Below are positions 32,511 through 41,959 of a DNA stretch of 64,000 nucleotides, piece after piece. Every line of letters begins with the position of its first letter. The first letter of the stretch is position 1. Origin of the DNA: Chrysomallon squamiferum (lineage: Eukaryota; Animalia; Mollusca); assembly GCA_012295275.1 (NCBI GenBank), contig CM022671.1, positions 11,408,001 to 11,472,000 on the forward strand, given 5' to 3'. A program made the translations under genes and the position numbers. The notes under the pieces were generated by a model. It was not told the DNA's origin. It did not search any database and worked only from the letters and a program-made list of their open reading frames with translations.

Positions 32511-35500
32511 TCACAATAAAATACAGCGAGCCTTATTCTTTTTGCGAACTTGTAATGCAGCTCGGGTGGCAGTTTCAAATACCTCCCTGACACCTTCCTT
32601 GGTTTTAGCAGAGCACTCTAAATAAGAGTAAGCATTTATCTTTTCAGACATAGCCCGTCCATCTTCTGGTCTCACAGGCTCCTGTTTCATTTTCATCAGC
32701 TCACGCTTCGTATTTTCATCATTTCGTAGATCCTTCTTGTTTCCAACCAGAATGATTGGAACATTTGGGCAGAAATGGCGAACCTCTGGTGTCCATTTTT
32801 CAGGAATATTCTCTAAACTGTCAGGGCTGTCCACAGAGAAGCACATAAGAATGACATCTGTGTCAGGGTAAGAAAGTGGACGTAGTCTGTCATAATCTTC
32901 TTGGCCAGCTGTATCCCAAAGTGCCAGTTCAACCTAGAGATATTAAAAAAATATGTTGATTGTGGTTTAGCTGTGAACAGTATATCTTAAAAAGTAGACA
33001 ACTAACAAAACAAAAAACTGTTCGGCAGCAAAATCAACAGCTTTCCAGTTAAAATAATTTTTTAAATCTTTGATAGGAAAAAAAGAAGAAAAAAAGGTAT
33101 ATATTATAAACTAAAATTTTAGAAATGAATTTTTTTTAAATATACAATCACTTGCCCAAAGCAGCAATTTTCATTTTTGTTTACAATATATTCAGAAAAA
33201 TAAATCTTCAAAACATGTCTACAATTTTTTAAGTCTCTAAAGTATTTTATACATTCTAGTGTCTTTTCTATTTCCATACTTCATATATATATATACATCT
33301 GATGCTTTAACCAGATACTGACATTTAAGATGTCATTTGATGCATCAGCATTTACCTTATTCCATCTCCAAAAATCGGCCAAGAGCTCATACATCAAATG
33401 TGCCAGTCAAAATTATTACTCAGTTTGTAAATATTTGAATACATCCTTCAAATAGTTATTGAAAATGATGTGCAAAGAACTGTGATAATAAATACTCAAG
33501 ACAAAAATAAATCTGGCAAGGTTATTATTTCCACTGTCAGAATTAACAACAAATTAAAAAATAAAATAAAAACACAAATTCAACAGTTTTAAAGACAATA
33601 TGAAAAGAATTTATTTAATCATGATCTACAGAGAAGATATACACCATGATGACAAAACACATACTGACTACATTATTTTATAACAATGCCATATGCCGAT
33701 CAAATGGTAGTAACAAAAAAACACTTCAGTGGTCTTGTTACAATTTCCAATTACTTGCATTTTTAAACAATCTCTTTTCACTAAATTCCACTGAGTTAGG
33801 TTGCCACTTGTTTATAATGCAACCAAGAGCTGATAGAAATGGTTAATTATAACTTTGGATAATTTATACAATCTAAAAAATAAAATGTACACTTTAGGGT
33901 AACAAAAGTAAAGGAATGTCACCAATTTTTGGTTTTTCAGTAAACTAAATCAAATGCATGAGTATAAACATTAACACTACAATGGATTTTCATTTATACA
34001 CTAAACAAGTTCTGTTGACTACTGCTGGAATGAATACAGGTAATTTCAAGTGTTTACTAAGTTATTAGTAATGTTTATGCAGATCAAGTGAAACAGTGGC
34101 ACCAATCATGTTTATAACACACACAAGACCATGTCAGCAATATTTAAACCATTTCTTCTGCAGTAGCTACCTGAAACAACTGAAATTAAATTAACAAGCT
34201 CTGTTAACAAGTACACCTAACATCTTGGCTATAAATCAATAATTAATCTGAACAAATGTTAATATTATAAATGCTATGTAAGAAAATGGATATGGTCAGC
34301 AGATATTATGACAGATAAATTCAATTAAAGACACAAACTATTGAATGGCATCCCTCAAGCAGTTTTATTCATTAGAACATCCTAATTTTACAAACATGTC
34401 ACTAAGCAGCTAATACATTTCCATTGCACAACCAAAAAAAAAAAAATTTTTTTTTTTAGATCTACTTTGACGATAAGAACACAAAAAAGAGAGATGAATA
34501 AATAAAGTAAGAAACATTGCAACTAATTAAAAATATAAGAAAAAAACAAATAATAGTCATTAGCTTTGTTCATTACATACAAAGGCAAATTTGAAACTAC
34601 TGGGCAGAATAGACTCTTGAATTTGAAATCTAGGAGAATTTCAAATAAAGTATCAGTCTAAATATTAATGCAGTTGTTAGTTTTGTCCGAAAATAATTTA
34701 AGGAAAAATAAAAATAAAATAATATGTATTCACATATTTCAAGTCTGCATTATTTTCATTTTAAAATCAAGAAATAAGCTTTATAAAAATACTATTTAAA
34801 AAAAAAATCAAAATGATATCTTGTTTTTAAACCTTTTGCCATTCAGATATGGAGGAACGTTAAAAACCCCTTCCTTCCAACTGACAGTATGAAAACAGAT
34901 CCATCTCTATCAGGGCCAGCCTTCTGAGATTACTAATATGATGTCATTACCATAATATGGACTTCTATATCCATATCACATAATGTGTTAAGTACATGCC
35001 TACAAGATTAAGAATATTACCAATTCTGATCACTTACAATTAATCTCTTCATTGCTTATGCTTCTAACAATAAAAAAAATTGAGCAACCTGTTAACTTTT
35101 TTCAATTTTGTTTCACAAGAATATAAATATTTTATTTTTTCAATCACTACATGATATCAAGTATTAAAATGTTATCCTATGTGTTGTGTAATGTGGAAAA
35201 ACTGTACAATGTGTATTGCAGTTAATACATACTGAGGAACGATTAAAAAGAAAGAAAAAAGGAAATAAAAAACTGTAGTTGTGGCACAATGCTGCCTCAT
35301 AACAAAATGTAAGCTTTTCTATATTTAACAATACACTGATAAAAAGCATAGCTGTTATACAAAAAGCATCAAAATTACCAATATTGTCAGCACTACATTA
35401 TAATTGTAAGATTTCTTAAAGACTGTTTATGACCATGGTTTTGATTATTTTAGTAGTAAACAAATCATAGCTGATGCAAGGAATGTGAGTTCCAAAATAT

Positions 35501-40592: not shown

Positions 40593-41959
40593 TATGATTG
40601 AACCTGATTAAAAAAATAAATAACTGAAATTAATGTTAGGCTATATCAATTTTTGTTTCTTATTACAAGTTATTTTATATCAGATTACAATATTCAATCA
40701 TCAAATAATCTTTAAATAGGTATTGGCAGGCAAATTTTGGCTGACTTTAATTTCACATTATATGCAAAACAATTAGCACATAATGAAAGCTGTAGCAAAA
40801 AGAATGAAATGCACAAAGCATAATGACTATCTCCAGCAGTTCAGAAGATATATGCAAATCGGTATGACAGGTATTTGGTTGGTTTTCAGCCCTATTTTGG
40901 CTACTTAGCAGAAAGGGCAACTTTGGCCAACTGTAGTTTGAAAAGTTACTGACAAAAAAGGCTGAAAATCAACAAGAGTGATGGGACCAACGTGCTAAAT
41001 GAGCTCACTTATTTTTAGACTTGTATGTTTGTATGTGTGTTCACAATAACATGCTAAACATGCCAAAATCGTGAAAATGACACACAGCAGAATGAATAGA
41101 AGTTCAAATAGACACCGTGGTATCAGTTTTTGTCTTATTTGACAAATTCAACTTGTGTTGTGAACAATTTATCAAGGTCTTTCAAACGACATACTTGAAT
41201 TTAACATTTTTAATATGCCAAGCCCATAAAAAAAAAAAAAAAAAAATTACCTTTTCAATTTATATAGAACAGCACAACTTTATTTACATAAGCAGCTTAA
41301 ATTTTCACTCTATTAAATAACTGGTAGTAATAAGATGCTGTGATGTGTATATATATATAGATAAATGTTACTTAAAAGGTCTTTAATGTTTAACTATTTA
41401 TGTTTAACCATAATCCTTTGCAATACATAAACTCACCAGAAAGGTGTTGCAGGTATTAATTTGGGGCAATATAACGTATGTATTCATGAGACTAAAGTCA
41501 ATTAAAGACACAGGTGTTATAAGTGTCCTCTGAAGCAAACAAAAGTTACCTATCATCTGACCATATTGACATTTTTTCTTACAAAGCTTATCAACAAGCA
41601 AAAATAATGTTTTAAAACTGATCAATTTATGATTTTATATTTTCAAAAAAAGTGATTAGATTTTTATTCATCATTTCATCAGTACCTCTGAATACATTGT
41701 TCTATTACGTAGTACAGTTTGGTATGTTTACTATTCTTAATTTGCCATTTATTGAAAGAATTTTGAAAGCAAAATAATTAACGGTTTTAAACGGAAGACA
41801 GTAATCGGCAAAAAAATATTAATTTGTTTATTTCAGAACGTGATTTTGCTATGCACATGCTATAATGTATATGCTAAAAGTAGGAACAATGAAGAAAAAC
41901 ATACAGCCAACAAGTTATTAAAAATATAAACAACATATAAATATAATCATTTAAAACGC

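Follow-up and report, generated by a model that had tools for sequence, protein, structure and literature searches.

A molluscan Rho gene with one P-loop exon and two homologous last exons that are probably used as alternatives

The stretch analysed here (the window; 64,000 nucleotides (nt) of contig CM022671.1 from the mollusc Chrysomallon squamiferum, assembly GCA_012295275.1, positions 11,408,001 to 11,472,000) carries on its minus strand a gene for the small GTPase Rho. Exon 1 codes for Rho residues 1-52 and closes with a GT donor, and downstream of it lie two last exons of 423 nt each, hereafter A (proximal) and B (distal), both of which start in phase 0 behind an AG acceptor, encode 140 residues plus a stop and end in a CaaL box, CVLL in A and CILL in B (Table 1). 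This structure, with a single exon for residues 1-52 and two intact exons for residues 53-192, had been read from the letters in an earlier note; its coordinates and translations agreed with ours, and a recount of the residues that differ between the products gave the same figure, 23 of 140, with 92 of 423 nt differing in the DNA. The starts of the two exons are 3280 nt apart, a spacing in which no meaning was found, and their likeness extends only about 10 nt into the introns by self-BLAST. A tblastn search with residues 1-52 (E up to 10, word size 2) revealed no second P-loop exon in the N-free 64-kb window: the coding part of exon 1 (40592-40437) matched at E 3e-32 and the next match had E 2.2, which bore out the statement that no second GDGACGKT exon lies between the copies.

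Table 1. Elements of the Rho gene in the window
Feature	Position	Strand	Description	Evidence
Shared first coding exon	40437..40603	-	Acceptor 40603, ATG 40592, residues 1-52 (P-loop, switch I), phase-0 GT donor	Sole copy in window; Pfam Ras family, positions 1-47
Proximal last exon A	35791..36213	-	Residues 53-192; fast-evolving copy	RNA contig joins exon 1 to A; Pfam Ras family, positions 48-160
Distal last exon B	32511..32933	-	Residues 53-192; conserved Met132/Arg140 copy	B-specific RNA contigs in 4/4 runs; Pfam Ras family, positions 48-160
Non-coding 5' exon	43531..43645	-	No ATG in covered part; 5' end is the contig start only	RNA contig in run X1
3' UTR of A	33694..35790	-	At least 2.1 kb, end not fixed (contig ends 33694, 33354, 33283)	Contigs in 3/3 RNA runs
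Final AATAAA in the spacer, a candidate poly(A) signal for A	33610..33615	-	About 680 nt before the B acceptor	Motif scan; contigs of two runs pass through
3' UTR of B	30327..32510	-	Likely at least 2.2 kb	Contigs spanning 30327-32820 (X1, X2; two pieces in X3)
Identical 92-nt block, exon A side; likely gene-conversion tract (switch II region)	36116..36207	-		Sequence comparison
Identical 92-nt block, exon B side	32836..32927	-		Sequence comparison

Exon 1 contained the G1 P-loop GDGACGKT and the Rho-type switch I YVPTVFENY, while G3 (DTAGQE), G4 (NKRD or NKKD), G5 (SAK) and the Rho insert were present in both A and B, as were a CaaX box and a basic tail with five basic residues in each form. 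The alignment of exon A with residues 53-193 of solved RhoA (E 3e-76) needed just one gap, in the tail, and ranked above those with RhoC and RhoB, and both forms were colinear with solved RhoA. With exon 1 common to the two predicted products and exon nt 7-98 identical between A and B, switch I and switch II are the same in both, as the earlier note had proposed. The acceptors differed little in pyrimidine content (15 per 25 nt for A, 17 for B). Two homologous terminal exons, each with an acceptor and a stop of its own, are a feature of duplicated alternative last exons and are present here. No shared constitutive exon lies downstream, each copy ending in its own stop and running into its own tail, which rules out internal mutually exclusive exons of the Dscam kind. 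Tandem paralogous genes were also rejected as a candidate, there being no first exon per copy and one P-loop exon in the 64 kb. The acceptor at 40603 leaves the reading frame open upstream of the ATG, and no convincing candidate for an upstream exon encoding an N-terminal extension of the Mytilus, Argopecten or Octopus type was found in 40620-44800.

RNA evidence came from five runs, four RNA runs of one study and one run of unknown kind from another, all taken as contigs; a junction was counted where at least 31 letters lay on each side, and such contigs cannot show RNA ends, nor can their depth rank the forms. A contig of run X1 spliced 43645-43531 to the acceptor at 40603, skipping 2927 nt with GT..AG ends and 117 letters on the short side. 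Exon 1 was joined to exon A (40437->36213, one of two junctions that the earlier note had named as a check) by one contig per run in 4/4 runs, covering exon nt 1-143 with the A-type letters at nt 3 and 6, and one of these contigs had at least 31 letters on both sides; that of X3 had 131 letters beyond exon A, the first 30 of which matched exon 1. The A-specific contigs of X1-X3 ran on from inside A through its tail, the one reaching 33354 in two pieces. B-specific contigs began on the last 30 letters of the shared exon 1-A contig in 4/4 runs and ran from inside B toward 30327; AATAAA motifs at 30278 and 30245 adjoin a TAA repeat where they break. Among two contigs per run, no other 5' entry to B was listed. 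Both last exons are transcribed, and each has a separate long downstream tail in the contigs. The contigs of X5 (30327-32820, 32980-33295, 33283-36012, 36178-38461 and 38523-40727) stood in an order that fits the window. Three RNA runs had no contig at 33107-33111, just before the B acceptor, and X5 had one; this gap proves nothing. Contig depths over three runs were 57.5, 94.7 and 78.8 for A, 59.2, 40.7 and 25.9 for B and 3-10 for intron pieces, and carry no tissue claim. The shared contig of X1 is A-type at exon nt 3 and 6 and B-type at 99-102, a mosaic made by the assembly and not a molecule.

The two last exons are under purifying selection: the comparison that the earlier note had called for gave dN 0.10-0.13, dS 0.7-1.5 and dN/dS 0.08-0.18 by four methods, dS for codons 100-192 being not estimable or saturated. 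The differences were unevenly spread along the exon. On the 5' side, silent differences were found in 2/2 codons at 53-54, 0/28 at 55-84 and 1/13 at 85-99; on the 3' side the counts were 9/24 at 100-125, 12/20 at 126-157 and 18/25 at 158-192, or 39/69 for 100-192 (Fisher p 7e-8 for codons 53-99 vs 100-192). A run of 28 codons without a silent difference was reached in 2 of 100,000 shuffles. Because an old pair carries a 92-nt identical stretch, we infer recent gene conversion, which, judged from this one genome, has likely homogenised the 5' part of A and B; and because identity stops before the region where the proteins differ, selection against homogenising the 3' part is suggested.

The earlier note knew this arrangement from no other Rho gene, a view that did not survive the search of databases. 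Tandem A-then-B copies were found in the records of 23 named species, which comprise one nemertean, one annelid and molluscs from four classes, and the layout is likely old and widespread. The search covered the longer relatives of B (best 120 of 265) and cluster look-ups. The pairs of known order numbered 24, comprising 22 one-P-loop models with two bodies (gastropods, bivalves, an octopus, a chiton, the nemertean Tubulanus and the annelid Dimorphilus), a three-copy Ylistrum model and the window; a 25th pair, from Bradybaena, had its order assigned by likeness, a gap kept the bdelloid Didymodactylos from being counted, and the Octopus and Mytilus pairs each combine two congeners. A further protein search and cluster look-up returned no additional named taxon with both exons.

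The second copy had Met132, Arg140, Lys128 and Arg145 in 25/25 pairs, with Met132/Arg140 in 24/24 ordered pairs and the order always A then B. The first copy had Met132 in 1/25 (Dreissena; 1/24 of the ordered pairs) and Lys140 in 20/25. Met132 occurred in 0/85 non-spiralian copies, parsed from 76 of 77 named non-spiralian proteins, and Met132/Arg140 was also present in bdelloid rotifer Rho, with Met132 in 12/12 bdelloid proteins checked. Identity at residues 120-157 over the 25 pairs was 0.89 for B-B, 0.66 for A-A and 0.67 for A-B, both within and between species. At 124-157, A copies showed 3.0-3.7 states per site and B copies 1.4-1.7; the variation of A was concentrated at 124-136 and 137-157 and near absent at 53-99. 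The proposal that the distal exon is canonical and the proximal one derived thus holds in part: B is slow and conserved, but it carries the spiralian-only Met132, while A, though fast, is usually outgroup-like in having Lys140 and in lacking Met132.

The closest named record, a Gigantopelta aegis model (P0311), has the same exon 1, an identical B and an A that differs at 1/128 residues. In Mytilus galloprovincialis, isoform X1 is A and X2 is B behind a common 20-residue N-terminal extension; Argopecten X2/X3 are isoforms of the same gene with one common N-terminal extension and different bodies; and Lingula isoforms X3/X5 differ only after residue 52. The Biomphalaria A and B records both have Ser50, where five other heterobranch records checked have Gly. 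Aplysia rho (P01122), which we take to be the founding Rho clone, is the B form; in Aplysia isoform X1 an A copy precedes it. The Ylistrum model has three bodies in series, the middle one matching Argopecten X2 and nesting with scallop B at 91/82, and from these sequences (P0319, P0127, P0133) scallops likely have three alternative last exons, with the middle one a later copy of B. In full A tails (the window and six named species) the residue directly before the CaaX Cys is basic, and two A tails end in Phe; most B tails have two small residues there, the B tail of the window being a local variant. In a metagenome scan, which kept 80 loci of 572 matches, locus L029 held exon 1 and an A-type exon and ended 2734 nt later, short of the 2857-nt spacer of the window. 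Short N-terminal extensions from an extra upstream exon, several with a Cys, were seen in Rho1 models of bivalves, an octopus, a chiton, a nemertean, a beetle and brine shrimp (P0037, P0127, P0081, P0191, P0196, P0100 and P0157); combined with A/B, such an extension could give four forms.

Database models often fuse the exons into a 320-residue "RHO" (exon 1, A to residue 180 in most of them, then B), as in many molluscs including Gigantopelta aegis. Models with one P-loop and two switch II motifs numbered 33, of which 19 were spiralian, and a fused model is not proof of a shared exon because such models also arise from tandem whole genes. One-P-loop fused models with two different copies were seen in Asterias (P0210), Acropora (P0212) and fungi (P0228, P0247), representing either tandem genes or an independent shared-exon layout.

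A tree of residues 100-180 (81 columns and 72 rows, two short rows of 74 being dropped) had little resolution. All 28 B copies fell into one group together with the two scallop middle copies and Lingula X5, and no A copy was sister to the B of its own species. Topology tests were run on 28 of the 74 rows under LG+G4, a model without site preference. Single tests rejected none of the constraints, including a B clade (p 0.52) and an A clade (p 0.13). In joint tests, forcing the copies together per lineage in all 11 lineages was rejected by the approximately unbiased (AU) test (1e-9) and the Shimodaira-Hasegawa (SH) test (0.0045), and the B clade was retained (AU 0.42). One old origin is the simplest reading of these sequences, and not a proven one.

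We therefore consider it quite probable that this is one Rho1/RhoA gene in which a single P-loop exon is spliced to the proximal and, likely as an alternative, to the distal last exon, giving two predicted 192-residue GTPases, and that the duplication is old and shared by molluscs and related phyla. The core of the earlier note, one first exon with alternative last exons making paralog-like Rho proteins, is in this way supported by the DNA, the RNA contigs, dN/dS and isoform records elsewhere. Use of the proximal acceptor and the A poly(A) site would yield form A, and when that acceptor is skipped the transcript would continue and splice to B; the long 3' untranslated region (UTR) of A would put the likely cleavage site within about 0.7 kb of the B acceptor, leaving time for B to compete. 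Gene conversion between copies 3.3 kb apart would keep switch II and its flanks identical, and conversions reaching the 3' part would likely be removed by selection, as they would wipe out the A/B difference. Switch-binding guanine nucleotide exchange factors, GTPase-activating proteins and effectors would serve both forms, which would differ at residues 124-136 and 137-157 (in RhoA the insert helix and the region of helix 4, remote from the switches), in the basic tail and in the 3' UTR, with likely effects on placement at membranes, on non-switch partners and on control of the mRNA. B would be held under constraint, and A would be tunable by lineage. Different placement or partners of the two forms are likely, to judge from the sequences, and the different 3' UTRs may matter as much as the protein differences.

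A number of observations weigh against this reading. The RNA comes from one study, consists of contigs only and may include DNA; the exon 1 side measures just 26-28 letters in 3/4 of the exon 1-A contigs, under the 31-letter rule; and the other junction named in the earlier note, 40437->32933, was not directly seen, no contig joining exon 1 to the B-type first letters. Such a junction would not be visible in contigs, because the 92 identical nt exceed the assembly word length and one path is kept of two near-equal ones; the signs of it are indirect, namely the shared contig, the single exon 1 and the isoforms of other species. Most other species are represented here by protein models and not by DNA, and none of the 80 metagenome loci had both last exons. 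In eight genomic loci (L002, L004, L005, L008, L009, L010, L015 and L016) a Met132 exon stood directly after exon 1, and no further copy followed in the next 404 to 10,000 nt, which means that the proximal exon is absent in some animals. Among the fused models, 14/33 were non-spiralian (fish RhoB-like, corals, a sea star, an aphid relative, a wasp, a marsupial and fungi), and three further models carried two P-loops. In the trees, the support of the B group was only 83/78, the A copies were not a clade (eight changes needed, mixed with outgroups), pairing the window's own A and B alone was not rejected (p 0.41), and an A clade beside a B clade was rejected by AU (0.004), though not by SH (0.14). 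Between them, the eight loci carry several different Rho genes with a single Met132 last exon apiece, and they possibly stem from a lineage in which the proximal exon was lost and copies of the whole gene are used.

Some of these points would suit a history in which the two-exon gene is real here and the layouts of other phyla arose repeatedly, B being the inherited spiralian exon from which relaxed proximal copies were made several times. The scatter of A copies among outgroups, the AU rejection of paired A and B clades, the Met132 exon right after exon 1 in eight loci and the renewed duplication of B in scallops all fit it. Nevertheless, forcing each lineage's pair together was rejected, the order was A then B in every ordered pair, and repeated origin from B would entail loss of Met132 in 23/24 and return to Lys140 in 19/24, returns that a site preference of the kind not modelled by LG+G4 could drive; we regard this history as unlikely. 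Equally unlikely in our estimate is that the proteins are nearly interchangeable and the two exons serve two different 3' UTRs (stability, localisation or dose). The identical switch regions, the five basic residues and CaaL end of both tails in the window, the wide drift of A sequences between lineages and the length of the unrelated UTRs (each above 2 kb) speak for it. Against it, B is near invariant at 124-157 across phyla and A differs there in every pair, conversion ends short of that part, and A types are conserved within clades, as the single difference between the A exons of the window and Gigantopelta illustrates.

The missing exon 1-B junction would also be expected if B belonged to a second tandem gene whose promoter and first exon are missing or misplaced in the assembly; other animals do have whole Rho genes in tandem (P0189, P0209, P0211), and Schistosoma has two Rho1 genes (PMC8670706). 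The spacer, however, is N-free and without P-loop sequence, the X5 contigs 32980-33295 and 33283-36012 cover it equally without a P-loop, RNA of A fills most of it, and the N-terminal extensions in Mytilus and Argopecten are common to the isoforms, which makes a second gene very improbable. Slighter still are the chances of a 320-residue tandem protein as the real second product, even with RefSeq models of that length for many molluscs including the closest named relative. No GT or GC stands in the window at the residue-180 cut, the A-to-B joint is absent among the 15 listed of 19 joints in RNA contigs, and A contigs pass through the stop into the UTR. The Gln at the joint of the model is absent from the Biomphalaria A exon (P0308 vs P0309), other annotation pipelines place the cut elsewhere, the same 128+140 pattern recurs in fish RhoB-like and coral copies, and the second half of such a protein would have no P-loop. 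The 320-residue models are likely annotation artefacts that hide two forms. That the tandem arrangement is an assembly artefact or includes a dead extra exon, the former named in the earlier note as a possible refutation, can practically be dismissed: no contig spans both A and B, but 92/423 nt differ, the flanks are unrelated, both exons are found in RNA, dN/dS is low, and Gigantopelta aegis has the same A and B.

An extension of the preferred reading, one gene with two alternative last exons, is that a single duplication occurred in the ancestor of Spiralia, including bdelloid rotifers, so that a third of animal phyla would make two RhoA "paralogs" from one gene. The distal exon would be frozen and the proximal one free to evolve, with conversion locking switch II and selection separating the insert, the helix 4 region and the tail for more than 500 million years, and the two forms might have different jobs in cytokinesis, spiral cleavage or neurons; all work on mollusc Rho since the Aplysia clone would then have dealt with a single one of them. 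We offer this as a tentative proposal that is rather doubtful at present.

RHOA, RHOB and RHOC of vertebrates likewise supply at least two close Rho proteins per animal that differ in tail and surface residues, but they are separate genes. The brain and placental isoforms of CDC42 arise from alternative last exons with different tails, only the last ~30 residues being exchanged; this too is a Rho-family gene with alternative last exons, but the core of its G domain is common to both isoforms. KRAS4A/KRAS4B also resembles the present gene, as one small-GTPase gene with two homologous alternative last exons, each with a CaaX tail, and PMC9882654 describes exon 4A as a last exon with the membrane-targeting region that arose in jawed vertebrates, perhaps through insertion of an exon from nras. 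Unlike KRAS4A/4B, the Rho gene swaps 140/192 residues (73%), including switch II, G4, G5 and the Rho insert, gene conversion likely transfers sequence between its copies, and the pair probably has a much greater age. Schistosoma SmRho1.1 and SmRho1.2 were rejected as an instance of the same layout: according to PMC8670706 they are two separate genes that differ in switch I (residue 33), a difference impossible with a shared first exon. The RefSeq "ras-like GTP-binding protein RHO" sets (Mytilus galloprovincialis X1/X2/X4, Argopecten X2/X3, Lingula X3/X5) and Aplysia P01122 likely represent the orthologous gene with the same A/B forms; these sets are automatic annotation, and many species have one fused 320-residue protein in place of two forms. 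No published description of the layout was found in the literature, although a mention in subscription papers or supplements is possible. The two-last-exon Rho gene is apparently undescribed, automatic annotation already listing isoforms for a few species.

RhoA has a central part in controlling actin, myosin and cell division, and invertebrates are usually taken to have one Rho1 protein. If the reading given here is true, molluscs and several related phyla make two Rho proteins from one gene, and scallops three, by swapping three-quarters of the protein. With the switches held identical, the gene would provide a natural test of the non-switch surfaces and tail of Rho, and a clear example of a duplicated exon with gene conversion at work in one half and selection in the other. 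In practice, many mollusc gene models appear to be in error, fusing the exons into a protein that likely does not exist; probes or RNA interference directed at the 5' half would hit both forms; and Met132 is a possible marker residue for spiralian Rho.

Around and within the Rho gene, several further features were noted. In Rho intron 1, at about 40900-42500, the summed depth of X5 contigs was 1000-2600 vs ~60 nearby, likely a high-copy repeat or mobile element. Two ankyrin-repeat genes, at 44795-48823 (+) and 57283-51663 (-), lie tail to tail, both with a long first exon with Ank repeats; the former is head to head with the Rho gene and starts ~1.15 kb from its 5' exon, and the latter has a weak SOCS box in its last exon (E 1e-4, just under the cut-off). 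They are likely an inverted duplicate pair of ASB-like genes. Broken frames at 58953-60819 (+) resemble a non-LTR (long terminal repeat) retrotransposon, with a weak Pfam RVT_1 match (E 0.0075, under the cut-off). A 120-nt inverted repeat was located at 50688-50806 and 53102-53221, and a 3.5-kb degenerate tandem array at 12651-16200 has a unit of ~46 or 92 nt by self-BLAST offsets, with shorter tandem arrays at 20399-20654 and 22418-22719. At the start of the window, a gene for a coatomer gamma subunit has its last exons at 277-513 and 2110-2367 (+), with matches to Pfam COP-gamma_platf and Coatomer_g_Cpla.

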